A stretch of DNA of 64,000 bases, from the NCBI GenBank assembly GCA_000091205.1, contig AP006500.2. The stretch is one strand, 5' to 3'. The translations under genes and the position numbers were made by a program. Position 1 is the stretch's first letter; each line of letters starts with the position of its first letter. The stretch comes from Cyanidioschyzon merolae. Taxonomy: Eukaryota. The notes under the pieces were generated by a model. It saw only the letters and a list, made by a program, of their open reading frames with translations, made no database searches and was not told the origin of the DNA. Below, one piece after another: positions 607 to 64,000 of the stretch.

Positions 607-1326
607 ATGGATCAACAGGTCTGTTGCGCACCTTGGTCGAGCACACCGATACGGCCGGAAGCGCACCGAAGAGGACGCAACAGGCGCGACCTTATACTTG
701 GCGCGCTGCCACCGAGGCGTTCACACCCTCAGTGCGCGTTATCCACGAGGCCACGAACGGGTTTGCAACCTCGAGCGCGATCCCTACAAACGAACGGGAT
801 CGCTGAACAATAATGCTGGACGCGCCCCCTCTCGAATTCTTCAAGCGCGCTATCGGGTATCGCGCTTCACCATGAACATTCTTTCAAACTATAAAGTCGA
901 TAAAAAATGGCGGGACGGGTCGCCGACGCGTTTTCGCAATCACCAGCGCCTCGTGCGAGGCTGCAGGCCGCGTTTCGATTTCAGCCCGGCCCCTATCGGT
1001 ACCGTCGCCTTGCAGGGCCTGCCCTGGCATCTCGACAGTAATAGCGACTTGCAGGGGAAGCGCCTCCGACGCCTGCAGAACGGCGGAGTCGGAGCCAGAC
1101 GCGGAAACGTGTCGGCAGTTGTACTGGGAGCTCGAGGCTCAGCTGATTCTCTTACTCTGTTTGTAGGTATTTTGTATTCAGAAACAGGCGCTTTTCAGCG
1201 ACTTGGTTCGAGCGAAAGCCGGGACCCAAGTCGCGGTGTCCCTTTGGCTGGCTTAGGACGGAGTATTGCGCCACTGGGTACTTGACGTACTAGTCGAGTG
1301 ATCCCCGAGAGGCTCGCTGGGCAACC

Positions 1327-2982
1327 ATGGAGCGCGATTTGGTCGGCAGGGGCGCCGCACTTGAATGCAGTTTGCGGCGAGCGCTTCAGAGGCAAATGCC
1401 GGAAGAGCACGTCTTCTTTCTGGCGGAAAGGCTTTGTGCGGAAAAGTCGACTGCGGAGAGCTTTGCGCTTTATGCTCAGGCTCTTGCGCAGTACGGCCGA
1501 CATCGGCAGGCAGTCGACGTTGTGGCGAAGTACTGGCAGCAGGATCTTGAGTGTAGGTACTGGTACGCACTCTGCTGCATTGAGGCTAATGAGTTGGCTG
1601 CCGCCTACAAGGCGCTATCTTTCCTGCTTCAGGAGAACGCGAACGAGAACCTTACCAAGGAGGTTCGCTCGTCCCTTAACAACGCTCGGGGTCTCCCGTC
1701 CGAGAGAAGCCTGTCTGTGCCATGGCAGGCGGAGGGACTATATCTACTAGGGCGTGTGTTTCGCCTCTCGAACACGCGCGTTGACCAGGCTGCTCAGTGT
1801 TTCCGACGAGCGCTTGAAATTGATCCGTTTCTTTGGTGCTGCATCGAGGAGCTCAGCTCCCTCTATCGATATATAGATTATTTCGTACCGGAAATGTTTG
1901 GTATCTCTGGAAAAGAAGAGCAAGTCTTCCAATCAGGACGAAGCTCTCTTCGGCTGGACAACTGCATTTTGCGCTGGAAGACGAGATCCTCGGGCTCGCC
2001 TCAGGATAACTTTCAGGCCTTGGCCACCGTGCGTGCACTCGTTGAAGGATACCATTGCCGAGAGGCGGTCGCTCTAATTGCGACGTTGCCATTGGCGCTT
2101 CAGCAAGCACCCGTGGTGCTCAAATGGCAGGGTCGTGCATATCTTGATGCCGGTGAGCTATCCGAGTGTGCGCGAACGTTTGAAAAGTACCTGAGTTTGA
2201 ACAGATCTGGATCCTTGGATGGCCTCGAATACTACTCGACGGCGCTCTGGCATATGCGGCGGGATGTTGAATTAAATGCACTGGCCCGGTATGCACTTGA
2301 ACGAGACCGCTTCTCTGCAGCAACCTGGTGCATTGTGGGTAATGCGTTCAGTTTGCAACGAGACACAGACAGCGCTATCGAGTTCTTCCTCCGTGCCGCC
2401 CAGATTGATCCGCGAAATCCGTACCCCTGTACGCTAGCGGGTCATGAGTATCTTTATTTGGACAATTACGATGCCGCTATGAGATGTTACCAGGACGCGC
2501 TCTACAGGAACAGTCGACATTATAATGCCTGGTTCGGCATCGGACAAGTCTATCAACGGCAAGAGAAATTCCGTCTAGCGGAAAAACACTATCGAATAGC
2601 CCTCGATTTGAACTCGAATAATTCCATGTTGTGGTATTATCTGGGCCATGTTATCCGCGTCGGCGGAGGCCGCGAGGTCGATGCACTGAACGCTCTGGAG
2701 AAGGCTTTGGAAATGAACCCTCGCAATCCGGTGGCGCGTTTCGAGTGCTGCAAACTATATATGCAGATAGGCCGCTTACAGGATGCCTGGAAAGAGCTGT
2801 ACCAGCTCCGGAATATGGTGCCCCGTGAAGCAGCTATCTACTACCAGATGGGTGTCATCGCTCGCGAACTGGGTCTTAAGAATGCCGTAGAGCTGTTTAG
2901 CATCGCTCTCGATCTGGATCCGAAACAACCGCTATATAGGCAGGCGCTCTTATCGCTAGACGAGACGCAAAGTGCGCCGTAG
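1327..2982 (+). CDS. CDC27: Anaphase-promoting complex subunit CDC27/APC3 (TPR repeat protein)
   Basis: 551-aa ORF with ATG start; C-terminal TPR block AWFGIGQVYQRQEKFRLAEKHYRIALDLNSNNSMLWYYLGHV...NPRNPVARFECCKLYMQIGRLQDAWKEL...VPREAAIYYQMGVI matches the conserved CDC27 C-terminal TPR array (AWYGLGMIYYKQEKFSLAEMHF...). Confidence 0.8.
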   Translation: MERDLVGRGAALECSLRRALQRQMPEEHVFFLAERLCAEKSTAESFALYAQALAQYGRHRQAVDVVAKYWQQDLECRYWYALCCIEANELAAAYKALSFLLQENANENLTKEVRSSLNNARGLPSERSLSVPWQAEGLYLLGRVFRLSNTRVDQAAQCFRRALEIDPFLWCCIEELSSLYRYIDYFVPEMFGISGKEEQVFQSGRSSLRLDNCILRWKTRSSGSPQDNFQALATVRALVEGYHCREAVALIATLPLALQQAPVVLKWQGRAYLDAGELSECARTFEKYLSLNRSGSLDGLEYYSTALWHMRRDVELNALARYALERDRFSAATWCIVGNAFSLQRDTDSAIEFFLRAAQIDPRNPYPCTLAGHEYLYLDNYDAAMRCYQDALYRNSRHYNAWFGIGQVYQRQEKFRLAEKHYRIALDLNSNNSMLWYYLGHVIRVGGGREVDALNALEKALEMNPRNPVARFECCKLYMQIGRLQDAWKELYQLRNMVPREAAIYYQMGVIARELGLKNAVELFSIALDLDPKQPLYRQALLSLDETQSAP

Positions 2983-4075
2983 TGGCCAACAGCGCCCGCG
3001 GTATATATGCGAACGAAACGGCGAATAGAGACCCTACAGGCTGTCGTACGAGTAAGTCGCCAGCTGTCCATGCGGTAAGCGCCAGTTGACACCTCGGGGC
3101 TATTTCGATTCCGCACCCGCAGACATTGATCCGTCTGTATTGGACCGGATGTCAAACCGGTAGCATGGGAGCTAGGATTTTCGATACGGACGCGACGGCA
3201 ATCGCATGTTAGTCTGAGCGTTGCTCCGCTTGTGCGAGCTCTCGAGACAGACTCGGATACGAGAGCTGGTACCCGTCTGCGATGGACCCGCTTGGACTGC
3301 TACCTTGCACCGGCGCTCGCGGGAGATAGGAAACTAGAATCCTATCTTTCTGTCAAAACCTTCCTGGAATTCCCTTGGGGTGCTTGATTCTATTCAGCGT
3401 TCTTCAGTCTGGAACTGGCGGGTGCCAAAGTGTTGCTGTTATTCTGATAGTTTCACTCATGCAGCAAAGGCGAAGGCCCTCTCGAAGACGCAGCAATGCT
3501 CCGCGCTTGCCGTCTGGGCGCTGATCTCTCCCCCCTCCATTCTAGACAATTACCGATGCTCTTGGGATTCGCTCTGGCCATCGCTTCTCGCGGGGCCAGC
3601 TCAGGGCTTGAACGACAGCGCGGCCTCAGCAAGTTGGGTTATTCTCGTGAAGGCAAGTCGGTTGATTGCATGCTGCACGCGCTACTATTCCGTACGGCAG
3701 AACGAGCGTTCTAAACCAGCGCCTACGGGTCGCCTTTCGAACGCTGCAATTCCTCTCTGGTGACCTGACAGGAGGGCTCACCCAAGATCTCGCTTGCTCG
3801 TAGGGCTCTCAGGGCCGCGCCACTGAATACTGACGCAGCCCACTCCTGCAAACTTTGACGATACAGAACCTGCGGCCTTTGAGGCTTATGAAGCGTGCCC
3901 CGTGGGGCACGCATTCTGCATTTGCGTCGTGACTCCACAGCAGGGCAGCCGCCAATGCAAACAGCCCGTAACCATCGGGCTCGCGTGTGCGGCCTGTTAC
4001 CGCACGGTTAGCCTGTCACCAGGAGGCAAAAACACTTGTCAGGCTCAAAAGATGCATTGCAATCTTCATTTTGTT

Positions 4076-5452
4076 CCCGCCTTTCGATCGTTTCCCGAAT
4101 GTTCGCTAGAAACACAGCTGCAATATTCAAAGTGCAGCAATAACGGCGAATGGATTCATGGGTAGTTCTATGCCCCTCGGTTGTACTATCCGTAGGGATC
4201 CCGTCGACTCCCTGCCGCTGGCATTCGATACGTCACCGGGATCAAGATGGTTCGTGACGCCCTCATACGCGGGTTCGTAACATAGCCGATATCATCATCT
4301 CATTCAGTCGCACGCGCCTGCACTCTTCTGTTTTCCTCAAGTATAGCATGCTTGAATCATGCATTCTTCAAGTTTTCGATATTTCTCCTTAAAGGCAACT
4401 CGAGGGCGCAGCAATGCGTACAGCTGGGTGGACAGCGAAAAGAATCGCAACGACTTCACTTGAAGACTTTGTCACATGCTCATATCGAAGGCTGACTACA
4501 ATTGTCAGGTCAGCTAATCGCATCCGTCCGAGAAGGAAATCCGCCCGTCCTTGAGACAAGCGGCAACGTGGCGTTCACAGCCGGCGAGATAACGCTCACG
4601 GCATACGTCCCCAGAGGCTTCGCTCGCTTCCGTACACACCGAAGAAAATCGGAGACTCAGACCTGAGTTATCGCAGCGACCGCGCCAGATAGAGAGTCTG
4701 GCACCGCCTTGCACGGAGGAAGCGTAGACGGATCGAAGTTTTCTAGAATTGCGCTCCAGCCTGCATTTTTGCCTCGCGGTACATGGTTCACCACGAAAAG
4801 CTTCCCGTTCCACGAATCCTCCATCGAATGCGACACTGTGCACTGGCTTGCGCTGGCTTGCACTGGCTTGCGCTGGCATTGCCCCGCACTGCCTCGAGCC
4901 GACGCCCTCTGTGTGGTACGGCAACGCCGTTCTGCCTCCGTGCAGCGACCGCACTGGCGCTATAGGCGTCATTGCTGTCGCTTTCGGCAGGCACTAGGCA
5001 CACACGATAGGACGTATGAAACGACTAGAATATCCGGGAAGTAGTGTGGGTCATGGAACTTGGAGGCAGGGCGTTCGATGGCTACTTCACCGCACACAAA
5101 CAAAAAGAAAACAAAAAGTGCACAATCGGAGAACGCTGGCCTAAGTAAGCATTTTGTCAGTGAGAAAAATCCGACACTGTGTTCGCTGAGGGCATTGCGC
5201 TGATGCAACCTGCCAGCGAAGCGCACGGCAGCGAGCCCGCAAACTGAGAAGAGCATCGTGGTAAGCCTTCGATACTCGTCAATTGCATGGAACGAGCGAA
5301 AACGCGAGCTGTACGACGCCTCAAAACGGCCCTCCGAGGAAGAGGAGCAGGAGCAGGAGAGGCTTTGGTGGATATACGGGAACACCTGACCACAGCCAAA
5401 AGTCATCGATGCGAGGACGCACAGAGGCTGTATACAATGAAGATGAAAATGG
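4076..5452. repeat. Direct repeat copy R1 (1377 bp), >99% identical to 14734-16110
   Basis: Identical ORF translations (4514-4972 = 15172-15630; 4969-5406 vs 15627-16064, 1 aa difference) and direct sequence comparison; boundaries where identity stops (left ...ctttcgatcgtttcccg; right ...gaaaatggcaagcgaa). Contains the microrepeat cactggcttgcgctggcttgcactggcttgcgctggc (4845-4881). Confidence 0.85.
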
Positions 5453-6360
5453 CAAGCGAAGCGCAGGCTGCAACAACCGTCCGCGCAACAAGTGCGTCGA
5501 CAACTACCGAACGCAGTAAAATCGGGACTTTACCACCACCGCCATCAATATCCTGCGACTGCCGAAAACCTAGCCAGAGAAGATAGGAACAGGAAGCAGT
5601 CACAGAAAAAGCCCGCACACGCTAGTCTCGATGCCAGCTCGAAGACATCCAGCCGTTCAGATTCGCACTCGAGCGCGCAGCGAGCACCGCAGCGTATACC
5701 TAGCGGACACGTATGTCGGACCCGATCCAACTGGAGGCCCCTGTGCGCTGCTTCGTTGCTGGCGGGCAACGCGCAAGCACGCGCGCGGCGCCGTTGACCG
5801 CGAGATCGACGGCGGGTATCTCACGCGTTGCGCGAGCGGCTGTATGCGATGGCGCGCGCATCTGCAAACGCCGCCTCTGAAAATATCTGAGGAGCGGGGC
5901 GTACACGCGGCGCCGAGCGTCGCGTCTCGAGAACGTTTCGCGGGCGATCCTGCGGCGAAGGCGCGCTTCGTCTCGACATCGCTAGATGCTGTGCGCTGCA
6001 TTATCGAATGCAGCTGCGCGTCAGCGGTGATATCTTGTAGCTGCAGTGCTGTGACGTGAGCGACCAGTTGCTCGATATTTGCGTGAGACTTCGAATCAGC
6101 GCTATAATATCATAGTTGTGGAGGTTGACGGCTTCTTTGACTGGTTCGAGGGGTGAGCGACTACATCTACTAGAAGCAGTGAGCAAAGTCCGGACGGCGG
6201 CGGCGGCGGCTTCTAGAACCTCGGTACGCTGAGGGTTTGGCACGCGCAGGCGCAACCGAGCTCGAGAACGCAACTCCTGGGGCGAATTTGTGCCAAACTT
6301 TTTAGGTTGTTTTCTTGAGTTTAGTTCGTCTGTGGGCGGCTAGAGTGTCGGCGCGGTACG

Positions 6361-8370
6361 TTGCCGCGTGCCTGCTGGCGTGACGTGGTCATGAAACGGC
6401 GTCCAGATAATATTGCGCTCGCCGGTCGTACAGACGCCGAGCCTGGCAATCAGATGGACGCAACGAAGCAGAGACTGACTAATCGCCCTTCCGGTACGAA
6501 TACCGACCGGTTCGTAGGCCCGGAGACCCAGCAGCATTACTCCGCTTTGACGACATACCCGCAGGTGACGCCAGCGGCTGCATGCTGGGGCAGGGTGGCT
6601 GCCCCGGGTTACGCGGGCGCTGGTTCCATGCAGGCACAATCCAACAGTTACCCCTGGACATCGAGCTATCGTCCGCTTATGCTCCATGGGTATCACTTTC
6701 CAATAGGGCCTCTGCCGCATTCGGGTCCACGTGGTGCTGGTGCGACTTCGGTGACGGCTTTTGGAGTGCCTGCTAGCGCGAGGGCACCCCAAGCGCCGGC
6801 GTCAGGCTTTCATGGATCACTGCAGCACGCTGTGGATCGCTGGGATCCAGTTCCGGTGCAGCCACCGACTAGAGAGGCGTTGTACCAGCAAGAACTATTC
6901 TATCAGTCTGCTCAGTTGTTCGGAATGACGCCGAGACACATAACGGGGACTGAACACACCCGCGGTTGGCCCGTTGCAGTGAATGCGGAGTTTTACAAAG
7001 CAGCGCATCCTGGGCAAATACCGGTGCCTCATAATATCCCATCGTCAGCTGAAGCGTGTTGCGCAAGACCTCATGACGGAGCGTTGAATTGCTTACACGC
7101 TTTGGCCGCAATCTCCTCACAGGCGGCTACCAGCCTTTGTGGCGTGGGAATGGCCCGCCCAAATACCGGCGCGCAGCAGTCCGAGAGAGCGACTGCATCA
7201 TGCCCAGCTGAAAGAGCGCAGAACCGAATGGAGAACCCGCAATGTTGCAACGTTCCAGCGGACTGTTCAATGCCTATGCATACCTCTTCAAACGAAGGCA
7301 TCCCAGCATGCCTGGAGCACCGTCCTCGCCCGGAGTTCTACCCCGGTAAAACGGACGGCACGCGCCCCGGTCATGTGCAGGTTTCAGAGGGCAACATGAG
7401 TATGGTGAGCTTGGATGCCTCGTCGCATACGAATCAATCGATGTCGCTGCCTACTGCGCTTAGCAGCCGCTTTAGGACTGGATACCAGGGACCGTGGATG
7501 CAAACGGTCCCAGAAACCAATGCACACTGGGAGCGAATGAGTCGAGACAGTAGTGGAACGAGCGCCCGCGCGATGCCAAGCGACGCTGCAAGTCAGACCG
7601 GATTGGATCGTTCTTCGAGCGGCGATGATGACGCAGCTTCGCTTGCGGGTGGCGAGCATCTGCAGCGTATGTCCGGAGACAATCCCTGGACTGCCGCAAG
7701 CGCATCACCGACAGCAGGCGATGCTGCCGAGAGATCGATCTTACACAGAAACGTAGGTCTCGCTGGTGGCGGTGCAGCGTCGTCAGACCCCACGGCGGAC
7801 TTTTACAGGGATGGTGCGAGTTCACAGGCTACAGGGCATGTGGCGGGACTGCCAAGCAACGCTGCAGGCCCCGTCGAAGCTCCAGATCGGCGGTTTCAGG
7901 TGCCTCACACGTCGTTCCCCGCGGGTGCGATAAGATGGGTCCAGACGCTCCCTGCGTTGCAACTGGATCAGAGCTCCAATGGTGTTCTTCTAGGCGGGAG
8001 ATTCGTAGCGTCGGAAAACACCGACCATGGCATGGATCGAATACCGCTGACCATCGAGCACCCGCGCTGTGCAATAACGGACCACGCCGATCGAGTCGCT
8101 GCTGTCGGTGCAGCACCTGACACCGCAGCAAAGTCACCGACCTGGAGTGCCACTGAACGAGAGCGCTATCGCTTGGAGCGTGTGCAGCGCTTCCTCGAGA
8201 AGCGCCGCCGTCGCGTAGCGCATCCCGGCTTGATCCGCTACGACGTACGCAAGCGCCTCGCAGATGCACGACCCCGGGTACGCGGCCGCTTCGCGCGACC
8301 TGAAACCGTTGCTGCTGCTACTGCTGTTGCTGCTGCGCCTGCCACGACGAAGGCGCCGACTCCCCCCTGA
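6361..8370 (+). CDS. CCT-motif (CONSTANS/CO-like/TOC1-type) domain protein; first ATG probably at 6391
   Basis: C-terminal RERYRLERVQRFLEKRRRRVAHPGLIRYDVRKRLADARPRVRGRFARP (about 8158-8300) is a canonical CCT motif (R-x5-RY-x-EK-x3-R-x3-K-x2-RY-x2-RK-x2-A-x2-RPR-x-KGRFxK). Rest of protein low complexity; no B-box or receiver domain recognised. ORF starts at TTG. Confidence 0.55.
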   Translation: MPRACWRDVVMKRRPDNIALAGRTDAEPGNQMDATKQRLTNRPSGTNTDRFVGPETQQHYSALTTYPQVTPAAACWGRVAAPGYAGAGSMQAQSNSYPWTSSYRPLMLHGYHFPIGPLPHSGPRGAGATSVTAFGVPASARAPQAPASGFHGSLQHAVDRWDPVPVQPPTREALYQQELFYQSAQLFGMTPRHITGTEHTRGWPVAVNAEFYKAAHPGQIPVPHNIPSSAEACCARPHDGALNCLHALAAISSQAATSLCGVGMARPNTGAQQSERATASCPAERAQNRMENPQCCNVPADCSMPMHTSSNEGIPACLEHRPRPEFYPGKTDGTRPGHVQVSEGNMSMVSLDASSHTNQSMSLPTALSSRFRTGYQGPWMQTVPETNAHWERMSRDSSGTSARAMPSDAASQTGLDRSSSGDDDAASLAGGEHLQRMSGDNPWTAASASPTAGDAAERSILHRNVGLAGGGAASSDPTADFYRDGASSQATGHVAGLPSNAAGPVEAPDRRFQVPHTSFPAGAIRWVQTLPALQLDQSSNGVLLGGRFVASENTDHGMDRIPLTIEHPRCAITDHADRVAAVGAAPDTAAKSPTWSATERERYRLERVQRFLEKRRRRVAHPGLIRYDVRKRLADARPRVRGRFARPETVAAATAVAAAPATTKAPTPP

Positions 8371-14733: not shown

Positions 14734-16110
14734 ATTTTCTTTCGATCGTTTCCCGAATGTTCGCTAGAAACACAGCTGCAATATTCAAAGTGCAGCAATA
14801 ACGGCGAATGGATTCATGGGTAGTTCTATGCCCCTCGGTTGTACTATCCGTGGGGATCCCGTCGACTCCCTGCCGCTGGCATTCGATACGTCACCGGGAT
14901 CAAGATGGTTCGTGACGCCCTCATACGCGGGTTCGTAACATAGCCGATATCATCATCTCATTCAGTCGCACGCGCCTGCACTCTTCTGTTTTCCTCAAGT
15001 ATAGCATGCTTGAATCATGCATTCTTCAAGTTTTCGATATTTCTCCTTAAAGGCAACTCGAGGGCGCAGCAATGCGTACAGCTGGGTGGACAGCGAAAAG
15101 AATCGCAACGACTTCACTTGAAGACTTTGTCACATGCTCATATCGAAGGCTGACTACAATTGTCAGGTCAGCTAATCGCATCCGTCCGAGAAGGAAATCC
15201 GCCCGTCCTTGAGACAAGCGGCAACGTGGCGTTCACAGCCGGCGAGATAACGCTCACGGCATACGTCCCCAGAGGCTTCGCTCGCTTCCGTACACACCGA
15301 AGAAAATCGGAGACTCAGACCTGAGTTATCGCAGCGACCGCGCCAGATAGAGAGTCTGGCACCGCCTTGCACGGAGGAAGCGTAGACGGATCGAAGTTTT
15401 CTAGAATTGCGCTCCAGCCTGCATTTTTGCCTCGCGGTACATGGTTCACCACGAAAAGCTTCCCGTTCCACGAATCCTCCATCGAATGCGACACTGTGCA
15501 CTGGCTTGCGCTGGCTTGCACTGGCTTGCGCTGGCATTGCCCCGCACTGCCTCGAGCCGACGCCCTCTGTGTGGTACGGCAACGCCGTTCTGCCTCCGTG
15601 CAGCGACCGCACTGGCGCTATAGGCGTCATTGCTGTCGCTTTCGGCAGGCACTAGGCACACACGATAGGACGTATGAAACGACTAGAATATCCGGGAAGT
15701 AGTGTGGGTCATGGAACTTGGAGGCAGGGCGTTCGATGGCTACTTCACCGCACACAAACAAAAAGAAAACAAAAAGTGCACAATCGGAGAACGCTGGCCT
15801 AAGTAAGCATTTTGTCAGTGAGAAAAATCCGACACTGTGTTCGCTGAGGGCATTGCGCTGATGCAACCTGCCAGCGAAGCGCACGGCAGCGAGCCCGCAA
15901 ACTGAGAAGAGCATCGTGGTAAGCCTTCGATACTCGTCAATTGCCTGGAACGAGCGAAAACGCGAGCTGTACGACGCCTCAAAACGGCCCTCCGAGGAAG
16001 AGGAGCAGGAGCAGGAGAGGCTTTGGTGGATATACGGGAACACCTGACCACAGCCAAAAGTCATCGATGCGAGGACGCACAGAGGCTGTATACAATGAAG
16101 ATGAAAATGG
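14734..16110. repeat. Direct repeat copy R2 (1377 bp), >99% identical to 4076-5452
   Basis: See R1; a few single-base differences (e.g. 4183 a vs 14841 g; 5284 a vs 15942 c). Confidence 0.85.
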
Positions 16111-21590: not shown

Positions 21591-22400
21591 TCCAGGAAGC
21601 GCTGACTCAACTGGCCCATAATTTAGGTGCTCAAGGACGCGAAAACGTTTCGCTACCATAGAGTGTACATATATGTCTACTTGCAGACAACTCCCGGACT
21701 GTTTCGACAGGACTCCTGCTATCCTCTTCAGCTTCTCATCGTATACTTCGAGCCCGAGAGGCTGCTCCATAAAGTTAGATAGCCACAGCCCTGCGGGTCT
21801 TGTCTTCAGTACCGCACATTGTCGGATTTTTATGGCGATGTTGAAGTCTCTGTTCACGAACTCTATGCGTTCGTTCTCGCTGGTGGAATTCACTGATACA
21901 AAGAGTCCTCGGACTCGTGCCCTGTATGGCGCCAAAGTCTCGTCATCGTTCCATCGGGCAAACGCCTTTTCTCGACGATCTCCTCATTTCTTCTTCGTCC
22001 ATTGTTCTTCTTCTTCGCTCGAGAGTCAACGAGAAGAGGATTTTTTGTTGTTTTTCCTGCACCCGGCGATGCCGACCCCCCTAGGATTCCCGACTTGCAT
22101 GTCCATACTTTCCCCTGGTTTTTTTATCACTTCAAACGAAAGCACTTTGCATGCGTCCGCGGTAAGCAGCGAAAAAGCATTTGATGACATGCACCTGAAT
22201 GCGGAACACTTTTCAGGGCAAAGACTGCGATGCGATAGCGATCAGCAGCGCGCGGCGCACCGCCGAGGCGTTACGCATTGCGGAATCGCGCACGCACGTA
22301 CGCATGCACGCATCGTATGGCGGCTTCCCGCCAGGCGATCTCGCTGATCCGTGCATGCCACGCGGACGGCACAGCCGTTATCGCCACATGCAACTGGCAT
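21588..22400 (-). pseudogene. Decayed Fanzor-like (TnpB/OrfB homolog) gene remnant, C-terminal RuvC-III region retained
   Basis: ORF 21588-21935 (minus) RARVRGLFVSVNSTSENERIEFVNRDFNIAIKIRQCAVLKTRP...LEVYDEKLKRIAGV..SGSCLQVDIYVHSMV aligns with the intact copy RAKVRGLLAIVSTTRNGKKRMEFVNRDFNAAINVRRCAVLETRP...VELDEKKLEAVVG..AGRCLHVSWRHLL; nucleotide homology to 59988-60165 visible; upstream continuation has frameshifts and stops (e.g. ..MER then shifted RARVRG; GRMQSAF stop vs GGKQRAFANF). Confidence 0.55.
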
Positions 22401-49378: not shown

Positions 49379-50407
49379 TCACTGGGGCCTGACAGTCGCT
49401 CGTGGCGACTCAACAGCGCATCGGTTCACTGTGGCGGGGCCACCGTCGCTTCGCAGCGCGACCTGCACTTGCCGGTAGGCTTCCCAGAGGGCAATGGCGG
49501 CGCTGGTCGATAGATTGTACGATCTGATACCGGCATCACCGGGACACACCATTGGAATCGCAATCGTCCGCTCCCGAGGAATATCCTCGGGCGGAATGCG
49601 TTCGAAACCATCTAGCTCGTTCCCAAATATTAGCGTGATCTTCGTTGCAAGAACCTCACTTCCTTTCTTTGATGAGACAAGGTCCGCGTCCAGCAACGAG
49701 CTCTGTGCGAACTTGGTGAAGTAAAAAACGTTACCCAACTGGGGCAAACCCTCGTCGCGAAAGGCCTGCCAACTCGACCATACACGCAGATCAACGAAAG
49801 GCCAATAGTCAAGGCCAGCCCGTTTCAGGTGGCGATCACTCAGAGAAAAACCCAGCGGTTCAATGATATGAAGCCGTGCTTGAAAACCTACTGTAGTTCT
49901 GGCGGTATTCCCGGTATTCCAGTGAATAGAGGGTGCGTAGAAAACAACGTTCAGTAGGGGCTCGCCTGTGCCCGTGTGACGCAGTGGCGCGCTCACAACG
50001 CCTGGGCCATAGCTCGCGCGTACGCACTTGCTTCTCGAGATGCACTGTCGAGATGCTCTACTGACGCCTGCGAAACAGGGCAGTTCTGGTGACCACTCGG
50101 TAACAAAAACGAACTCGAGTGCGCGCATAAGCGCCTGGCGTCGGTACCAGGTTCCTGTGTCCATACAGAGCGCGCAATATGAGGAATACTGGGGTGTTCG
50201 CCCTGCGGCGAGTGCATTTCTTTGTGGTTCTTTGAGAGCACGTTTCCTCGAACAGGGAATCGTCATCATTGCTGACTTGATACCAGCAATGGGAGAGCGT
50301 GCATGTATCCACGCCTTTCCTCCAACTTCTGAGACCCATATTCCCCGTCGCAGGTAGTGGTCATTTCGTGCGTTCCGCAGTGCGCCGAGTCTGCCATGAG
50401 CGTCCAC
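49379..50407 (-). CDS. SpoU/TrmH-family RNA 2'-O-methyltransferase, TrmL-like (tRNA wobble-position methyltransferase), with about 150-aa N-terminal extension (possible organellar targeting)
   Basis: C-terminal 170 aa LNVVFYAPSIHWNTGNTARTTVGFQARLHIIEPLGFSLSDRHLKRAGLDYW...RTIAIPMVCPGDAGIRSYNLSTSAAIALWEAYRQ is colinear with bacterial TrmL ([73 protein letters not shown]). Confidence 0.7.
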   Translation of the reverse strand: MDAHGRLGALRNARNDHYLRRGIWVSEVGGKAWIHARSPIAGIKSAMMTIPCSRKRALKEPQRNALAAGRTPQYSSYCALCMDTGTWYRRQALMRALEFVFVTEWSPELPCFAGVSRASRQCISRSKCVRASYGPGVVSAPLRHTGTGEPLLNVVFYAPSIHWNTGNTARTTVGFQARLHIIEPLGFSLSDRHLKRAGLDYWPFVDLRVWSSWQAFRDEGLPQLGNVFYFTKFAQSSLLDADLVSSKKGSEVLATKITLIFGNELDGFERIPPEDIPRERTIAIPMVCPGDAGIRSYNLSTSAAIALWEAYRQVQVALRSDGGPATVNRCAVESPRATVRPQ

Positions 50408-54792: not shown

Positions 54793-57294
54793 CGAGACCG
54801 GAACGATTGCGTTTGCTCAACACAGACTCGGCATCAGCTCGTTAAAAGTGCGACCATATTCATGTGTGTCACATGTTTCCGAACGACCAGATTTGCGATG
54901 CCTAGTCGCCTGCAGGTGTCCCGATGCCCCCAGTGAACGACACACGACTGATACTGAGGCGACAAGAAGCATGTGTTGCTGCGTCTGACATTCGCGTAGC
55001 GGTGGCTGCGGCTCAAGGCTTGTCCAGAAAGCGCTCGAGCGTCAAAGCGTCTGCAATTTTGGTGCAGGTTGATCGCGTGTAAACTCTGCACAGGCACGGA
55101 GTTGGTCAACGATAACGTGTTTCCGGACACAGTTCTCGGCGCTTTTTCGGTGCACGGTAACGGTGCGTTCTGCTTGTATGCGAGCTGCAACGCCCCGAGA
55201 AGCGTAGGGCGTAGCACTCAGTGTTTCTAGGATTGAAAATGGTACGGTTCTGGAAACACGTTGTACCTGCCGGTGGGCTTGTAAACGGAGTGCGATGGCC
55301 TGATTGGTAGCCCTGCACCAGAGCATACGCTGTGTGTCGGTTGTTGGCACGGGCCGAAGCCGAACCCAGCACCTGCACTTTTATCGTCGTTACCGTCGCT
55401 CATGCATCACTGGAGATCAGATGGCTATGATGCGTGTAAGCACAGCAATGCCGCTTTTCGACAAGTCGTTCTCTGCGCTCACCAGTCCTGGACTGCTGTG
55501 TAGCATCTCTGCTCATACGTAGGCTGGAGCGTAAAATCCGCGCGCTAGTCCATAGGCGTGCTCGTGACGGTAGTAACGAAAATGAACCTATGGCATACCA
55601 GGTACATAGAAAGAAAAGGCGGGTTTCGGTTCCAAAGCCAAGGAGAAGGCGAAGAATCCCGAAGGCGACGATTAGCAGACGGATCTTCTCGAAAAGAAAC
55701 CCCCGAGAGGCATGAAGGAAAAACTGTCGGGGCGGATGGATCAGTCTAAGACCGCTGCCATGGCATTCTTCATGGGAACATATCAAAGGATAGACCCTTT
55801 TAAAAAGTGAGGCACAGGGCGTTATCACGGATCATGTTGCTCCAAATTTGAACGAGACACGTCTGGCTTTTCTCGCCTTGAAGAACCTCGTTAAACAACT
55901 GCCTGTAGGAGTTGCGGACACAGGGTTCCCAGCTGTCGTCATTCATCGGGAAGCCCTGGGTCAAAACTCGATGGGACTAGTGCTTTACAGGACAGGAGCT
56001 GCAACACGGCCTGATCGTGGGTCCCAGGTTTTGCACACACGCTTCGCAGCATACCTCGACGCATCGCTATGCCATATCGGTCATCGGGACACCTAGAGCG
56101 CATGTGCCAAAGGGCATCGACATAAGCTCCCGGAGCGTATGGGTGTCGATGTCCAGCGTCTCATGAAGCGCACCCTGTGGGCGTCGTCGAAGTCTCTCCC
56201 TAATGGACCAGAAAACCGGGACTCAAGGAACCGATTCTACGCTTCGTGGAGTTTACAAGCGTCCAAGTGGCTCATGCGGACGATCTGTGACTAGGCTGCA
56301 TGAGACTGCACTAGGCCCGCGAACGATTTCATTTACACGAAAGCAATGAGCGTGTACACACCGAGCTATTGAATGAGGTGGCAAATGGAATGACCGCCAA
56401 GTCGCCTTATTTTGTGGCCGCCCATCGCGCTCGACGTATGGCAGCGAGCATGGGCTACACGCCCGCTTTTTGGCGATTGCGTACAATGAGTCCAGGAAAC
56501 GATTCTGCGCGATTTCCGAGGACACCTTCAGGACGGCATAGAGGCATCACGAGCACGGGTGCTTGCTGAAACTGCCAACGGAGAAGCGCGTAGAACAGAG
56601 ACGGATGCACGGGATAGTGTGCGGTACGCTGAGCGAATGCCAAATGGCGAGGCAACCGGAGATGAGCGGCGTCGCCTGGGTCGGATTCCACCGGTAACCC
56701 TGCGGGCAGGCAGTCTCTGCATCGAGACTTGAGCGTCACCGTCAACATTCGACAATGTCTCGCGTATCCGGAGCGTCCAGCGGATTTGTGTAGAGCGACC
56801 TTTCAAAGGAGTCGTTTCGTATTCAGCACGGGTATTTCGCTGAACCGCTGAAGACTCTGGATGAAAAAATACATGCAGTCAGGGTAGAACGCGTAGTCCA
56901 TGCTCGACTGGATCAACGCATTGGTATGGTGTGGTTCAGGGATCGGGCAAGGTCGGAACACCAGACGTGCAATCAACGGAAATGCTTTTCCTGTTCATTG
57001 ATAAACGATTTCAATGTTGCATTTTCCGATCATATACCGGACACCTGTCAACCGACACCCAGGCTCTGGGATACAGCGATTTCGCCATCGCGACGGGGAA
57101 GCGTGCTTCGGCTCGCTTCTCAAGCGCCGTACGCTGGACCCAGACTTGGATTCGAGTCTGAGAATCCGTCCCCGAAGTGAACAAGCGCCCTGGTTCCATT
57201 TCAAGCTAGCGTATGGGTAAAAATTCGCGTTTTACATCGATGCGGCCCGTCACACCCATTCACATACGAGTCGGCGTGAACGCGGCGATCCGAG

Positions 57295-59979
57295 TCAAAC
57301 GGATGCTTGGTTATCTGTCTCGTCCCAGAGCGGTACACGCAACACCGGCTCTATCAAAACAACCCAGGGCTGTAGCCCCGACTGCTCTTTGATGATATCG
57401 CTGGCAGGCCGCTCCGCTCGCAGATCATCACCCCAGGATGCAACCAGCAGCACATCGATCCACACAAAAGGCATGGTGAGCACATATCGAAGCGACTGGG
57501 AGAACGCCTCCACTCGCTCTGGTTCAGCCGTTGACCAGCTCATGTTCGTCCCAGTGCAGAGCGTTGTCAGATCCTCGTCAAGTACCCAAGCCGAAATCAC
57601 CGTCGGCGCAGAAGCGATTATTTTCCGATTTTCGAAACGCAGGTCGTCATTTAGAAACGGCTGATTTTCCACCGCTTCTTTCGATCCACTCGGGCACTGG
57701 AATGGCAGATCTGTCAAAAGCAGCTGCAGCATGTGCCGCGAGTCAGCGTCAACGATCCAGTGCACGTCGCAGACGCAGGCGTACACGCGGTAGAGCCGAT
57801 GCATTGGAGTGTCGGCGCGCGCGCACGCATTACCCGCTGCACGCATCGAGCGCAGTGCACGCATGTCATCCAACATATGCGCAAGCGACTGAGGGCGTAG
57901 CGCTTGCCAGGGTATGCTCATCGTTGAACTTGTCTGTAGCAGCGGTGGACCACTACAATGCAGGCAGCTGGGGTGCTGTACAGGACCCCGTTTGACAATT
58001 CCTGTCTCTGCGGACTCGATATTAGTCGTTGTATGGGAGGTGGTGGTGTAGGCAACGCGTTCGCGATTCAGTTCGGTGCACGGGGCGCTGAGTATGGGAT
58101 AGGCAGCAGCGCTCATTTGTTCCGGTGTATTTCGGGTGCCAAGCGCACGCTGGTGAGCAACGGGCGCTGCTTCGTATGCGCTTTGCGAATCGGTCCGACA
58201 CGTGGGATCAGTCAATGCTGCTCCCAAGTGCTGCATGCGACTTTGCACCTCGGGCATCCATTGCGGGAACTTGTAAATCGATGAACCCTCATTCATGGTC
58301 AGGCGCAAAGGCAGACCCGGGCGTCGATCGAGGCGTACATCGCGAAGCCGGAACCAGTTACCGCGAAGGTGCGGCTCCAGTCGATGTGTGAGCCGCGTCC
58401 AGCACTCTGCGGCAATGGAGACCGTCACCAAATCGGAGATGCTTCCGTCGGTGACTTTGAGCAGGAATTCGTACGGGGTTTTCTCCAAGTCCCGAATGAG
58501 CACCACCAGATCGTATCGTAGCCGTTGCATGGCGCTGCCGTTTGCTGAGTCGACCACAAGCGAACTTTGCAGAATGTCTCGCAGGGTGGCGGAGAACGCC
58601 TTCGAGCCGAGAAAGCCGCTTTGCGACAGGAGTGCACGCGCCCAACGTAGCAACTCCATGGCGTAACATTTTTCACTATTGGTGATCACGATCGATTTCG
58701 TGTTTGACGGGTAAGCATATATGAGCGGATCGGGTAAATGATTCATTTCTTCGAGATGAGTGGCGGTCGCGGCTCGCAGACCGGACAAGTCTCCGGAAGC
58801 GGAAGCCGACGAGCGTCCCAAACCAGCTCCCTCATCATGCTGAGCAAGTGCAGGCCAGAGGCACATAGAAGAGAGCGAATTTGTCTTCAGCTCCAACGTC
58901 TCCGTCTTCGAACCACTCGGACTCTGTTGGGGAAACCACCGCAGCTCGGCGCGATGTACCCGGACGACGTCTCCTACCCCGATGTACGGAACGCAATCGC
59001 TAAGACGGCTACTGAACGAGGTAAGCATGAATTGGGGAGGTGCGAAGCTCACCAGCCGCCCATCAGAGTCTGTTACGACGATGCTTGGATCGATGATCTG
59101 CAGCTCAGTGAGCAGTTCTCCGGTACGTACCAGGCGAGGCGCCCGGACGTCGACGATCACCCCGTAAACGTCATACGTGCGACCGGACATCTGGCCGGGG
59201 TGTCGCAACTGCTCAAGCGTTAAGTAGTGATGTTTTGAGTCCAGGGGCACTACAGGCCTCGGAACTGGTTCGCAACTTTCGTGCTGTGCGACGGGGCGTC
59301 CACTGGTGTCCGTCCCTGCACCATGCTCTGTGACGACCAGAGTTTGCCCTATAGACTCCGGAGACAGCTTCATGATACGTGCGTTTGCAAGTTGGGATAG
59401 ATCGTTGCACTTGCCGGCGTCTTTGAATATGGTGAGCGCGGGTTTGCAGGCTGTTGCGTCTGCGGCACCAGCACAGCAGGCCTCTCGCTGGTCAGGACCC
59501 AGTACCACCGCGTACTCGTGTAGTTCCAGACACGAGTCCAACAGTCCATGGTCCCTGGCCTCACAAATGTCGCCCAGCGGTACGACCTGTGCGTTCTGAA
59601 CCTCCACAACGTCCCAGTGTGCTAGGGCGGTGCCCGCGGCCGTCCAGTCGCCGGTGCAAACAAGCACAACCACGGTCTGCTGTGGAGCAGGAACACTCGG
59701 CCAGGGCTCAAGTAAAGCAAGGATCGCTCTACCTGAACGATTTTCAACTAATGTTCGAAGGACTCGCCCTCGTAGACGAAATGGATGCTCAGCGTTGCAG
59801 GTGTAGGGCTTGAGGCTCCGAAACTGCACGAGACGCAGTTCCATAGATTCCGTCGCACCAACAACGCCGTTCGAAAGTCGAACGACGCCAACGGTGTACA
59901 GTAGTGGCGGGAAAACCGTCTTAGAGAAGATGTCTCCAACTGACGTGCAGACACCTCCCCGCCTTTTTGGACCGGCCAC
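57295..59979 (-). CDS. POT1-like telomere end-binding protein (OB-fold); annotated start overlaps Fanzor stop, true start may be internal Met (MELRLVQF..., about 59844)
   Basis: HYLTLEQLRHPGQMSGRTYDVYGVIVDVRAPRL...LQIIDPS...GDVVRVHRAELRWF is colinear with POT1 OB1 (YTYLPLNQL...VNVYGVVKFF...IVDQT...GDIVRFHRLKIQ); an additional OB-like segment lies N-terminal. Confidence 0.5.
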   Translation of the reverse strand: MAGPKRRGGVCTSVGDIFSKTVFPPLLYTVGVVRLSNGVVGATESMELRLVQFRSLKPYTCNAEHPFRLRGRVLRTLVENRSGRAILALLEPWPSVPAPQQTVVVLVCTGDWTAAGTALAHWDVVEVQNAQVVPLGDICEARDHGLLDSCLELHEYAVVLGPDQREACCAGAADATACKPALTIFKDAGKCNDLSQLANARIMKLSPESIGQTLVVTEHGAGTDTSGRPVAQHESCEPVPRPVVPLDSKHHYLTLEQLRHPGQMSGRTYDVYGVIVDVRAPRLVRTGELLTELQIIDPSIVVTDSDGRLVSFAPPQFMLTSFSSRLSDCVPYIGVGDVVRVHRAELRWFPQQSPSGSKTETLELKTNSLSSMCLWPALAQHDEGAGLGRSSASASGDLSGLRAATATHLEEMNHLPDPLIYAYPSNTKSIVITNSEKCYAMELLRWARALLSQSGFLGSKAFSATLRDILQSSLVVDSANGSAMQRLRYDLVVLIRDLEKTPYEFLLKVTDGSISDLVTVSIAAECWTRLTHRLEPHLRGNWFRLRDVRLDRRPGLPLRLTMNEGSSIYKFPQWMPEVQSRMQHLGAALTDPTCRTDSQSAYEAAPVAHQRALGTRNTPEQMSAAAYPILSAPCTELNRERVAYTTTSHTTTNIESAETGIVKRGPVQHPSCLHCSGPPLLQTSSTMSIPWQALRPQSLAHMLDDMRALRSMRAAGNACARADTPMHRLYRVYACVCDVHWIVDADSRHMLQLLLTDLPFQCPSGSKEAVENQPFLNDDLRFENRKIIASAPTVISAWVLDEDLTTLCTGTNMSWSTAEPERVEAFSQSLRYVLTMPFVWIDVLLVASWGDDLRAERPASDIIKEQSGLQPWVVLIEPVLRVPLWDETDNQASV

Positions 59980-61297
59980 CCACTACTGCTTCCAACTTTT
60001 TCTCATCTAGTTCGACTTTGATAGGTTGTCCAATAAAGTTCTCTCTTGTCAGCTCTGGAGGTCTCGTCTCCAGGACCGCACATCTCCGTACATTGATAGC
60101 GGCATTAAAGTCTCGGTTCACAAACTCCATACGTTTCTTCCCGTTGCGAGTTGTACTCACTATTGCGAGTAGCCCTCGAACTTTCGCCCTCCTTTCCATT
60201 TGCTCCTCCGTCAGCGGTCCGTACTTTGCTATTTCCTCAGGGCTCCTCTGGCACTTTTCTATCTCCACGCTCTGAAGTGTACAACCCAGTTCGTGGTATA
60301 TATACGATGTTCGGAACTCATCTACAGGTATCGTAACAAAACGCCTTGCGCACTGTTTGTGCACCCTCGTCGTTGGAGCTGGAGTAGTGCCTTTCTTGGG
60401 CGCCCAGCGCCCTGCCCCATACGCTACTACGAGCCTTTGACTTTCATCCTCCTTCAAGGCGCTCAACTGATTGAAAAAGTTGGCAAACGCCCGCTGCTTC
60501 CCACCGTATAGATTCATTCGCAAACGAGCCCACCGGGGCTTCGTATACTCCTCCCACAGCGCATCCCAATGCGCCATGCGAACTTCCATGAATTTCCGAA
60601 AAGCTTCAAATTTCGCGCTTCGGCTAGTCACCTTGCTCAAAGCTTCCAGGTGATCCTTCATCCCTGAATTCCAAGTCTCGATTTTCTTCCTTGCATTCAT
60701 GATTCCCGATTCTCGATAGTATCTCGCTCTCGAGAACGTCAAGAGACGCATGTCTTTCTGACGTAAGTTGCCGTCAGTACAATCTTCCGCCCGCTTCGGT
60801 GCTGCGATGGTGATGATATTTGAGTTTCCGGTGTCCGCGCCAACGACAAAGTCGTTATCTTGCACTTTCTGCTTCTCAGAACCGGGCTTCTTGTTTTCTT
60901 CATGGTTCGTCGCGTCAACGACAAAGTCGTTATCCTGCACCTCCTGCACCAGAGGATCCGCTTCCTTCCCATCTTCATCCTTCGTCACGTCAACGACAAG
61001 GTCGTTATCCTCCACCTCCTGCATCGCAGGTTCTGCCTCCTTCTCATCTTCATCGTTCGTCACGTCAACGACAAAGTCGTTCTCTTGCACCTCCTGTGTC
61101 GCAGGATCCGCCTCCTTCTCATATTCATCCTTCGCCACGTCAACGACAAACTCGTTATCCTCCACCTCCTGCATCACAGGATCCTCCTCTTTGTTTTCTC
61201 CATCCTTCGCGACGAGCGCAGCCGAGGGCGGAACTGGCCGACCTTCCTTCAACCGCCGATAGTGTACACACAAGGGTACTCCATCGGTTTCGATCAA
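59921..61297 (-). CDS. Fanzor-like protein, C-terminal segment (acidic tandem repeats, RuvC-II, Zn-finger-like, RuvC-III)
   Basis: See the mobile_element entry; the ORF-track start at 61297 is TTG, and the reading frame is open a further 30 codons upstream. Confidence 0.75.
   Translation of the reverse strand: MIETDGVPLCVHYRRLKEGRPVPPSAALVAKDGENKEEDPVMQEVEDNEFVVDVAKDEYEKEADPATQEVQENDFVVDVTNDEDEKEAEPAMQEVEDNDLVVDVTKDEDGKEADPLVQEVQDNDFVVDATNHEENKKPGSEKQKVQDNDFVVGADTGNSNIITIAAPKRAEDCTDGNLRQKDMRLLTFSRARYYRESGIMNARKKIETWNSGMKDHLEALSKVTSRSAKFEAFRKFMEVRMAHWDALWEEYTKPRWARLRMNLYGGKQRAFANFFNQLSALKEDESQRLVVAYGAGRWAPKKGTTPAPTTRVHKQCARRFVTIPVDEFRTSYIYHELGCTLQSVEIEKCQRSPEEIAKYGPLTEEQMERRAKVRGLLAIVSTTRNGKKRMEFVNRDFNAAINVRRCAVLETRPPELTRENFIGQPIKVELDEKKLEAVVGGRSKKAGRCLHVSWRHLL
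60841..61215. repeat. 5 x 75-bp in-frame tandem repeat (minisatellite) inside the Fanzor-like ORF, encoding acidic 25-aa units (EVQDNDFVVDVTKDEDEKEADPxxQ)
   Basis: Unit starts caacgacaa(a/g)gtcgtt at 60841, 60916, 60991, 61066, 61141 (period exactly 75); protein shows DNEFVVDVAKDEYEKEADPATQEVQENDFVVDVTNDEDEKEAEPAMQEVEDNDLVVDVTKDEDGKEADPLVQEVQDNDFVVDATNHEENK. Confidence 0.85.
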
Positions 61298-61677
61298 CCC
61301 AGTAAATACCTTTTTTTGCTGACTTTTAGACGTTTGAAATCGAAGATACTCTTCCAGTACGTCTCCCGGTGTTCGCCGGAGAACTCCTCCCTGCTAACAT
61401 CGAACTCCGGACAGATCTCCCTCATGATGCCGTAAAGGACGCCGGAGTCGATAGTTACAAAATGTGACTTGACTTTCCACATTGGAACCACGTTGAAGCG
61501 CTTCCCCATTAGGAAATTCTTCCGTCTCTCCCACTGTTCATTTGTCTCTTCACTCAGCTTCACCTCCGCTTTGCGTGCGAGCTCTCGGTCCAAAAACACG
61601 AAATAGCGCAGGATGAGGCGGTAGTATCTTTCCTTATCTTTTTTCAACGGTGATATCTTGTCTGTTGGATTCACCAA
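61294..61677 (-). CDS. Fanzor-like protein, middle segment containing RuvC-I (VTIDSGV)
   Basis: Frame joins the C-terminal segment if the A7 run at about 61313-61319 (plus strand T7) is A8; ORF-track start is TTG/GTG. Confidence 0.65.
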
Positions 61678-62423
61678 CCCAGTGCCGCACGGTGCTCTTG
61701 TATAGCCGCACGGATCACAGAAGCTTCATTCGTGCTCCTGCGTGATGTCTTCATATCGACAAATTCGATCTCATCTTCATACTTTCGATCGTTCGTGATG
61801 CCGTTGATCATCGCCCATATTCCTTTGCGAGAGATGCCCGGGTAGAGTGCAAACACGGCGCGTTTCATGAAACGTTCGAGGTTCTCTGTCAAATGCTTCT
61901 TCAGGTTCGTAATGTACTTCATTACCCCGTATGTGTAAATATTTCCGTCACCCTTGTATCGGGTACGCTCGAAGCGGTATTCGGCGTAGTTTTCGTGGAG
62001 AGCGTGCACTAGCACATTTTCCTTCCGCGCTTCCCCTGTACCAAGCATCAGGTGACGAATAAAGGTCTTGTGGAAAAACTCGTCTGGAATCTCGACCGTT
62101 TCCATGTGCGTCACGTCGCGATACATCTCCCTCGCCAAATGCATCAGCCCTGAAGACGCCTTGACAATACTCTTGGAGTGCGAGTCGACACGTTTTTCGA
62201 TAGCGTCTCGCAACTTTTCCCTGTAGGGATCCTTGATATGTCCAAGAAGGAAGGCTTTCACCACCATCTCGTCGTACAGTCGTCTTTCTTGCCGCCTTCG
62301 ACGTAGGGCGTCCACCTTTCGATTCTCCTTCACTTCCTTTTCTTCTGGACTCGGCACTGTATTTGTTTTTTTTCTGGCAGCCGGCGACACTGGGCCTCCA
62401 GGATCGTGGACTTGCTTTTTCAT
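61671..62423 (-). CDS. Fanzor-like protein, N-terminal segment
   Basis: 250-aa ORF with ATG start (MKKQVHDPGG...), basic N-terminus (KKTNTVP..RRRRQERR, NLS-like); frame shifts by one relative to the middle segment within 61673-61720. Confidence 0.6.
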   Translation of the reverse strand: MKKQVHDPGGPVSPAARKKTNTVPSPEEKEVKENRKVDALRRRRQERRLYDEMVVKAFLLGHIKDPYREKLRDAIEKRVDSHSKSIVKASSGLMHLAREMYRDVTHMETVEIPDEFFHKTFIRHLMLGTGEARKENVLVHALHENYAEYRFERTRYKGDGNIYTYGVMKYITNLKKHLTENLERFMKRAVFALYPGISRKGIWAMINGITNDRKYEDEIEFVDMKTSRRSTNEASVIRAAIQEHRAALGW

Positions 62424-63626
62424 AGCTTTCCTTTTTTAGTTTTTTTGAGAAAGAACGCTCTTTGAACCCTTCTGTTATATACTGCGAAAAATTAATCGAA
62501 TATTTTTACTTGAGGTTTGAAGCACAATCGAACTGAAAGACTGTACGTTGCTATGACCTGAACGAAAATACAACGTTTACAATAGATCTACATGCTAGAG
62601 ATCAGGATCACGTTCCCCTTCAAAAACGGCATGTGCGTCGTGTCTCATGCCTGCCTGATCTCCGAGGTGCGCTCACTGAGCGCGATGCAAACTAGTCACA
62701 AACTATTTATCAAAGAACAACTATCTTTAAGCCCAACACACCACGCCCGCATAAGAGGTCTAGTTTTTCCGGAGAAGCTCTGAAAGTGGGCGAACGCGGG
62801 GTGCTTGGGCGACGGCGAAGGAAGCCCACGACAGGGACGTTGACCGCAACGAACAGAGGGGCGCAGACAGTGGCAGCAGAAAATATTGACGAGGGTTCTG
62901 AGCAGTCATCCGCTGCTCTCGAAACAACGCTGCAGGCTCCGGCGCAAATCCTGGATTCATTCTTGAACTCGGGCTCAGGATTACCTCCTACATTGGTTTC
63001 TACCTCAACTCTGGAAACAGTCTCGGCGGATACTTTGGAAGACGGCTGGCAGTATGTTCGCGGTCGAAGCTGGAATAAGCGACTTATCCGCCTATGTGTT
63101 TGGGGAGCGGATACGAAGCCGCTGAAAGGGTAGTTCGTAGAGTATCCGCTGTGGTTGCGGGTAGCTTCACGCGTCCGGCAAGATAAAGGTCGCATTCGAA
63201 TCGACCTTGACTAATGTACTTCTGATTTTACGCTAGCACTGCGGCAAGCACTCAGTGAACGACTGGAATGCAGGAGGCAATGGTGGCGTGTGCGTTCTCA
63301 CACCCTGGGGAGGGTGCATCTAAATCGACGACGTATCTCTGGAGTACCGCAGCGTTACTCCTATTCCCTTATGCGCTACGACTCGATAGGTTTCGCATCA
63401 TGGAATATTTGTGGGATAGCCTCGATACTAGACGACGAGATATCGAATTACCAGTACAGTAATGAAGAACTGATACAAGTCGTTGACTGTACAATGGGTA
63501 AAGAGACCCAACCAGATACGGAGAAGGAGACACAGAAACCTCATGATCCACCTAGATGCAAAATATCCAGAGAAAGCAGCTCAGGAAAGAGCCCGAAGAA
63601 GAAGAAGACCAGCAAGAAAAAATAGA

Positions 63627-64000
63627 TGAATAGAAAGAAGAACTCCCAAACGAGCCCATCACAAGTCATCCCCCGAAAGGGCACCCCAGCGGGATCTCAA
63701 GAAAGCTGTCACCAAACCCAGGCACCTGCTCACAGCGCTGAAGATCCGAAAAGCCGTGAATACAAATCTTCAGACCAATTGGCACGCGAGTTTGTAGATG
63801 GGAATCAGAAGATTGCCAGAGAACTGGGACTGCTTGCACCTGAACACAACAGTAGCAAGCCGCAGTACCTCAAACGACGTACCAAAACTCGGATTGATGA
63901 ATGCCACCGACTCCATAAGATCGTCAACCGCACCGCCATACGCGCCAACGCCGGAGACAAGGAAGCGAAAGCAGCGCTACCGGCGCTACAGGCGCAACAT
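63627..64000 (+). CDS. Hypothetical ORF, 5'-complete, runs off the right edge (MNRKKNSQTSPSQVIPRKG...REFVDGNQKIARELGLLAPEH...); AT-richer DNA adjacent to the Fanzor-like element
   Basis: Manual translation from ATG 63627; open to window end; basic/low-complexity; no family recognised. Confidence 0.2.

Follow-up and report, generated by a model that had tools for sequence, protein, structure and literature searches.

The closest described relatives of the element analysed here are the Fanzor1 repeats of the CMe-1A family, which were reported by Bao and Jurka (2013, Mobile DNA 4:12) to be present in ~150 copies, each ~80% identical to the consensus and a few of them intact (PMC3627910). The 3169-bp consensus has no terminal inverted repeats (TIRs) and encodes a 734-aa protein in a single exon, listed as "734 (1)" (PMC3627910). 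An interspersed repeat of ~3.2 kb recorded by Nozaki et al. in 2007 (253 copies, every ORF truncated, weakly similar to WSV486 of WSSV; PMC1955436) appears to be the same family, and WSSV is itself among the Fanzor1 carriers tabulated by Bao and Jurka (PMC3627910). The genome of Cyanidioschyzon merolae 10D is finished, gap-free and assembled from telomere to telomere, and introns occur in only 0.5% of its genes (PMC1955436).

In this study we examined a 64,000-nt stretch of this genome (hereafter the window), the minus strand of which carries three consecutive ORFs in three different frames. As a first-pass annotation had proposed, these ORFs belong to a single Fanzor1 gene, from which one base is missing at a run of seven adenines in comparison with the rest of the family. 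We conclude that the locus is an ordinary pseudogenised copy of the already known family CMe-1A, and that the break at the A7 run (junction 2) is very probably a genuine germ-line deletion of a single base in a dead copy of this element in C. merolae 10D.

Identity and boundaries of the element

The published 3169-bp CMe-1A consensus matched the window (blastn) at 86-88% identity across 62672-59865, in two segments covering consensus positions 660-2196 (85.8% identity) and 2122-3169 (87.6%), and a global alignment of the two DNA sequences gave 86.8% identity. The consensus protein (734 aa) and the restored window protein (834 aa) are colinear. Homology with ~80 other copies stops sharply at ~59854-59866 and at ~62688. 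The products of five host ORFs of the window, and of the adjoining telomere-binding-like gene, are identical to annotated proteins of C. merolae 10D, and the element is located on the 1.25-Mb chromosome of this strain. Like CMe-1A, it is devoid of TIRs, resides in the same host genome and has decayed in the manner of most copies of the family; it differs from CMe-1A in carrying four extra 75-bp repeat units within the ORF and two private 1-nt deletions. The features of the copy are collected in Table 1.

Table 1. Positions in the window of the CMe-1A copy, its reading frames and its sequence features.
Feature	Coordinates	Strand	Remarks
Fanzor1 repeat CMe-1A copy	59863..62690 (about)	-	consensus positions ~660-3169 matched; without the 5' 635-bp TE-N2_CMe-like part
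ORF1	61671..62423	-	N-terminal 250 codons; ATG at 62423; ends at frameshift-induced TGA
Junction 1	61678..61680	-	GGG; in the consensus and almost every paralogue four bases stand here, GGGG or others (CTGGGGcTGG)
ORF2	61294..61677	-	middle 127 codons; out-of-frame tail ...SKKRYLLG*
Junction 2	61311..61317	-	coding-strand A7 (plus-strand T7); the family has 15 nt here, AGCAAACAAAAGGTA, one more than this copy
FTGLIETDG	61280..61306	-	conserved Fanzor1 motif
ORF3	59921..61297	-	C-terminal 458 codons with RuvC motifs
75-bp tandem repeat, in frame	60841..61209	-	4.9 copies, 25 aa each (TRF); just upstream of RuvC-I
RuvC motif GADTG	60827-60841	-	within ORF3
RuvC motif VDEFRTS	60305-60325	-	within ORF3
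RuvC motif RDFNAAIN	60092-60115	-	within ORF3
Non-coding conserved 3' end	59863..59920	-	terminal hairpin CGTTCGA-CTT-TCGAACG at 59868-59884

The 5' 635-bp region of the consensus, which resembles TE-N2_CMe, is missing from the window copy, where consensus homology begins at ~660. Most CMe-1 copies found in metagenomes likewise stop at the point equivalent to ~62688 of the window. Either the window copy is a 5'-shorter form of CMe-1A, or the published consensus is a composite.

Directly adjoining the element on its 5' side is a second repeated sequence (62690-64000), which continues beyond the end of the window. It is 86-92% identical to sequence lying directly upstream of CMe-1 in at least 10 other loci (among them L035, L007, L009, L046 and L058). 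Comparison with the consensus led us to reject its identification as the TE-N2_CMe-like 5' part; it may be an alternative 5' module, mark a distinct subfamily, or be a preferred neighbour of CMe-1. Elsewhere in the window, comparison with the consensus revealed no full second copy of CMe-1, only fragments. These comprise an old piece of the CMe-1 3' region (21679-21923, 69% identical) and TE-N2_CMe-like fragments (consensus 84-256) at 4892-5070, 15550-15728 and 50319-50401, two of which have identical scores and lie ~10.6 kb apart.

Close relatives of the restored protein were found in JGI metagenomes only, where at least 167 stretches are related to the element. Exact-sequence look-ups of ORF1, of two start variants of ORF3 and of a 126-aa gene call for ORF2 returned no record.

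Comparison with characterised Fanzor1 nucleases

The profile of the family (a 33-sequence alignment, A3, composed of P0001, P0005 and 31 remote relatives) matched three Fanzor1 proteins of solved structure among the PDB sequences: Parasitella parasitica Fz1 (9cf0, E=8.6e-18), SpuFz1 of S. punctatus (8gkh, 9.4e-11) and Guillardia theta Fz1 (9cer, 3.4e-5). The remote relatives included in A3 were drawn from the 1391 relatives that a profile recovered from among 1.84 billion representatives. Searches of the PDB sequences with a single sequence (phmmer) or with a profile of the close family gave no relevant match. A Pfam scan of the restored 834-aa protein returned nothing at E<=1, neither OrfB_Zn_ribbon nor Cas12f1-like_TNB; a sub-threshold match to the latter (E=0.0023) was seen in one remote relative, and the database entries carry a weak DUF8286 assignment alone.

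Three acidic residues, D484, E656 and D725 (P0001 numbering), are invariant across the 33 sequences of A3. They are the acidic residues of the RuvC motifs (D in GxDxG, E in DEFRTS and D in RDxNAAxN), with a putative catalytic role. Among the invariant columns of A3 are D of GxDPG, E of DEFRTS and D, N, A and N of RDxNAAxN, each of which is retained in the window copy. A further conserved motif, FTGLIETDG, starts one codon downstream of the A7GG sequence of junction 2 (this codon is GTA, read as Val in the restored frame). In the PDB profile search it aligned with FQGTLETDG of P. parasitica Fz1 and FEGSITTDG of S. punctatus Fz1, and D359 of its TDG is invariant in A3.

The window copy shares with the three characterised proteins the FxGxIETDG, GxDPG, DEFRTS and RDxNAAxN motifs. 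It differs from them in being a distant homologue, detectable by profile, and in having its ORF split in three; nuclease activity of this copy is not expected.

Two one-base deletions interrupt the gene

Alignment of the consensus coding sequence with the window revealed exactly two 1-nt gaps and two in-frame insertions, of 75 nt and 225 nt; in-frame stop codons were absent. The first gap lies at ~61680 (consensus CTTGGGGCTGG, window CACTGGGTTGG) and the second at ~61314 (consensus AGCAAGCAAAAGGTA, window AGCAAAAAAAGGTA).

The second gap coincides with the homopolymer at which the frame break had been placed in the first-pass annotation, and global alignment with the CMe-1A consensus confirms that a single base is missing exactly there. 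The run of seven T on the plus strand had been assigned to about 61313-61319; it exists, but its true site lies two bases to the left. The overlap of the two open frames, estimated at about 30 codons, amounts to ~32 (61393-61299), the frame of ORF3 being open upstream to 61393. The insertion of one A into the run joins the frames of ORF2 and ORF3, as had been predicted, and the product matches intact homologues, so the junction is not a product of chance. These homologues read through junction 2 within a single ORF, and the CMe-1A consensus protein crosses it in one exon (…ASKQKVFTGMIETDG…); at this point the sequence of the published CMe-1 consensus protein is ...KRLKASKQKVFTGMIETDG.

The first gap (junction 1) is a 1-nt deletion situated 370 nt upstream of junction 2, beyond which ORF1 aligns to residues 1-~248 of the consensus. 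Among the paralogues compared, GGG at this position is seen at this locus alone. The unbroken states would be GGGG at 61678-61680 and A8 (or AAACAAAA) at 61311-61317. Because of the frameshift 370 bases upstream, mending the A7 run would not revive the gene: its repair alone would fuse ORF2 with ORF3 and leave ORF1 out of frame. In place of an intact single nuclease ORF, the window contains three ORFs, in three frames, separated by two 1-nt deletions.

The two in-frame insertions are the extra units of the 75-bp tandem repeat, of which the consensus has one. The repeat is a coding minisatellite inside the nuclease gene, and the number of its units differs among copies (more in P0007, fewer in P0002).

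Alleles of the locus in metagenomes

The orthologous locus was found in four contigs (L017, L011, L083 and L086) originating from four different JGI metagenome data sets, which together with the window make five sampled alleles. The contigs show 97.8-99.3% identity and have the same flanking gene. The tract at junction 2 is A7 in L017, L083 and L086, and A8 in L011, which is contig Ga0080006_1264404; GGG at junction 1 is present in all four. L011 and L086 also share a nonsense mutation (TGG to TGA at 60404, ...VVAYGAER*). The first-pass annotation had held that the A7 run decides whether the element is intact. This does not apply, since the deletion at junction 1 is common to all five alleles and the A8 allele carries a premature stop; not one of the five contains an intact gene.

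The A7 count of the 10D window is corroborated by these assemblies of other strains. L083 aligns with the window over 7.9 kb with zero gaps, and the flank common to the window, L011 and L017 has a single indel site (around 56866-56870), which indicates very low indel noise in the metagenome data.

L086 is the haplotype nearest to L011, with which it shares 61299A, 60411A and the stop at 60404, and yet its tract is A7. This contig (Ga0504781_000743) mixes variants which, apart from it, are confined to L083, L017 and L011; either the haplotype arose by recombination, or the metagenome assembly is chimeric. Several other differences among the alleles were observed. The 5' 560 bp of the element are ~6% diverged from the window in L017 and L086, in comparison with ~0.5% elsewhere, which suggests gene conversion between copies or mis-assembly. 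A second tract (62366-62373), located in ORF1, reads A8 on the coding strand of the window (T8 on the plus strand), against A9 in L017 and A11 in L086. The haplotype represented by L011 and L086 differs from the window in the interval 59924-61460 by 22 substitutions within the element, of which 9 are G to A (coding strand) and 1 is C to T, and its flank is free of such a bias; strand-biased mutation or chance may account for this excess.

Selection and the age of the lesions

The dN/dS ratio of the restored coding sequence against the consensus is 0.34 (0.23 for the C-terminal part). With no stop codons at ~13% divergence, most of this divergence must have accrued while the lineage was still coding. 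The differences among alleles are of another kind: their nonsynonymous to synonymous counts (16:6, 28:15, 9:1 and 40:15, accompanied by new stops) are close to the ~78% nonsynonymous share expected without constraint. This neutral pattern indicates that the copy died before the sampled haplotypes split (~1%) and has drifted since. The A7 run is common to haplotypes that are ~1% diverged, which is at odds with the "very recent" inactivating slip suggested in the first-pass annotation; beside the age of the family the loss counts as recent, yet it is not a fresh slip.

The 3' end and the downstream gene

The 3' ~110 nt of the element, including the terminal hairpin, are highly conserved among 25 copies, and the conserved terminal sequence reads ...GAACGGCGTT at 59863-59872. 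Fanzor biology would make this region a candidate guide (omega) RNA. RNAalifold analysis of the 25 copies revealed almost no covariation at the 3' end (1/23 pairs, covariation term +0.12), and in view of this conservation without covariation we make no claim for an omega-RNA.

The gene directly downstream of the element, BAM82608.1, is annotated as "similar to telomere-binding protein alpha subunit". Its ATG (59844) is separated by 18 nt from the end of the element (59863), on the same strand (59842-59863). With so short a spacing, the promoter or 5' leader of BAM82608.1 must be inside the dead Fanzor element. The same arrangement occurs in at least 10 metagenome gene calls, in which the protein is predicted in 894-aa versions whose start is a GTG within the element.

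Origin of the A7 run

Comparison with other genomic copies, which had been recommended as a check in the first-pass annotation, places the homopolymer in a different light. In all 74 paralogues junction 2 is of in-frame length and the run is interrupted, with no stretch of A longer than 5. The commonest form is AGCAAACAAAAGGTA (SKQKV), which contains the interrupted run AAACAAAAG (A3-C-A4). The supposedly "classic" homopolymer signature is therefore peculiar to this locus, and a slip within a pre-existing run is not clearly supported. Dropping the single C of AAACAAAAG gives exactly the A7 of the window, so the deletion may have created the homopolymer rather than having been caused by it.

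The alternative route involving slippage begins with a C-to-A substitution (CAA to AAA, Gln to Lys) that produced A8, a state retained in L011, followed by replication slippage to A7. An in-frame A8 allele does exist, and the tract at 62366-62373 of the same element is A8, A9 or A11 depending on the allele; should the A8 of L011 be both real and ancestral, the lesion would be a slip within a homopolymer that was already there, as the first-pass annotation had proposed. The position of L086, which has A7 though it is nearest to L011, demands of this route a substitution and two independent deletions (three events), or else recombination, whereas loss of the C requires one deletion and one insertion (two events). 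Loss of the C in a single step is the most parsimonious explanation and is favoured over slippage at junction 2. This argument on the order of events is weakened by the mosaic appearance of L086, which, together with the length changes of the tract at 62366-62373, leaves slippage some weight: we regard it as unlikely, though plausible enough to be taken seriously. By whichever route A7 arose, junction 1 was already broken in every allele.

A more elaborate reading, in which we place very little confidence, is that A7/A8 is a hypermutable, reversible length switch still segregating in wild populations of Cyanidioschyzon and that the dead copy has been co-opted, e.g. as promoter or 5' leader of the telomere-binding-protein-like gene. 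If this were true, tract length or translation of the residual ORF might influence the downstream gene.

Homopolymers are classic sites of sequencing error, and the first-pass annotation had considered a sequencing or assembly error, in which case the true 10D sequence would have eight bases and ORF2 and ORF3 would be in frame. The related contig L011, with its A8, is in line with this. We nevertheless consider such an error very unlikely, because A7 was reproduced in three independent assemblies of different samples and the data are poor in indels, as the gap-free 7.9 kb of L083 and the one flank site demonstrate. Moreover, the 10D genome was finished without gaps (PMC1955436), and all alleles have in common a second frameshift, which does not lie in a homopolymer.

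The tract, a run of A with a G behind it, is similar to known slippery sites. Programmed -1 sites on A-rich heptamers, e.g. A AAA AAG, are used by IS3-family transposases and by E. coli dnaX. The break might accordingly be a regulatory feature read by programmed -1 ribosomal frameshifting or transcriptional slippage, and SKKKVF would indeed result if a single tRNA slipped by -1 on AAA AAA A. The likeness to the IS3-family and dnaX sites lies in the run of A followed by G at the point where two overlapping frames of a transposon gene meet; the window run differs from them in being unconserved in its family, in the wrong register and without a stimulatory structure. A7 is absent from the consensus and from 74/74 paralogues, where the frame is continuous without any shift. 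In the zero frame the codons are AGC AAA AAA AGG, with no X XXY YYZ heptamer, because the A-site codon is AGG. The 111 nt downstream of A7 fold no better than shuffled sequences (MFE -33.2 kcal/mol, shuffled mean -35.6, z=+0.68), a result on which programmed frameshifting was rejected. In addition, junction 1 lacks a slippery sequence, and among the alleles stops and nonsynonymous changes build up in the proportions of neutral evolution. We regard this mechanism as highly improbable.

A short spliceosomal intron joining the frames across junction 2 is conceivable in a eukaryotic host, given that multi-exon Fanzors exist elsewhere (PMC3627910), but it can be dismissed with near certainty, as the homologues are colinear, have no extra sequence and differ by exactly 1 nt, the CMe-1 protein is encoded by a single exon (PMC3627910), and only 0.5% of the genes of this almost intron-free host contain introns (PMC1955436).

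Proposed history of the copy

The order and route of events that we infer for this genuine deletion are as follows. The copy would have entered the chromosome 18 nt upstream of the telomere-binding-protein-like gene, and purifying selection would have acted on it during most of its divergence from the consensus. Its reading frame would then have been lost through two locus-specific 1-nt deletions, one converting GGGG to GGG (61678-61680) and the other within AAACAAAAG (61311-61317). The junction-1 GGG is private to the locus, which means that both deletions either followed the insertion or took place in an unsampled source copy. On this account the A8 of L011 would have arisen secondarily, by a +1 slip, or would be an error in the assembly of that contig. 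Neutral drift followed, during which different haplotypes gained a stop mutation and additional indels. What remains at A7 is a scar, with no working mechanism attached to it.

Concluding remarks

The case carries a lesson for the interpretation of interrupted genes: a frame break located at a homopolymer is, taken alone, no evidence for a sequencing error or a slip. In the present case, comparison with the paralogues points to a homopolymer made by the deletion, in a gene already dead from another lesion. The right annotation of the locus is a Fanzor1 (CMe-1A) pseudogene rather than three hypothetical ORFs. Beyond annotation the locus is of little importance, and it is not a candidate for an active RNA-guided nuclease. 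An active Fanzor of C. merolae would be better sought among the rare intact environmental copies. An uninterrupted ORF was found in 2 of the 45 full-length metagenome copies, L001 (819 codons, 5800-8256) and L005 (778 codons, 3183-5516), and these are candidates for an active Cyanidioschyzon Fanzor1.
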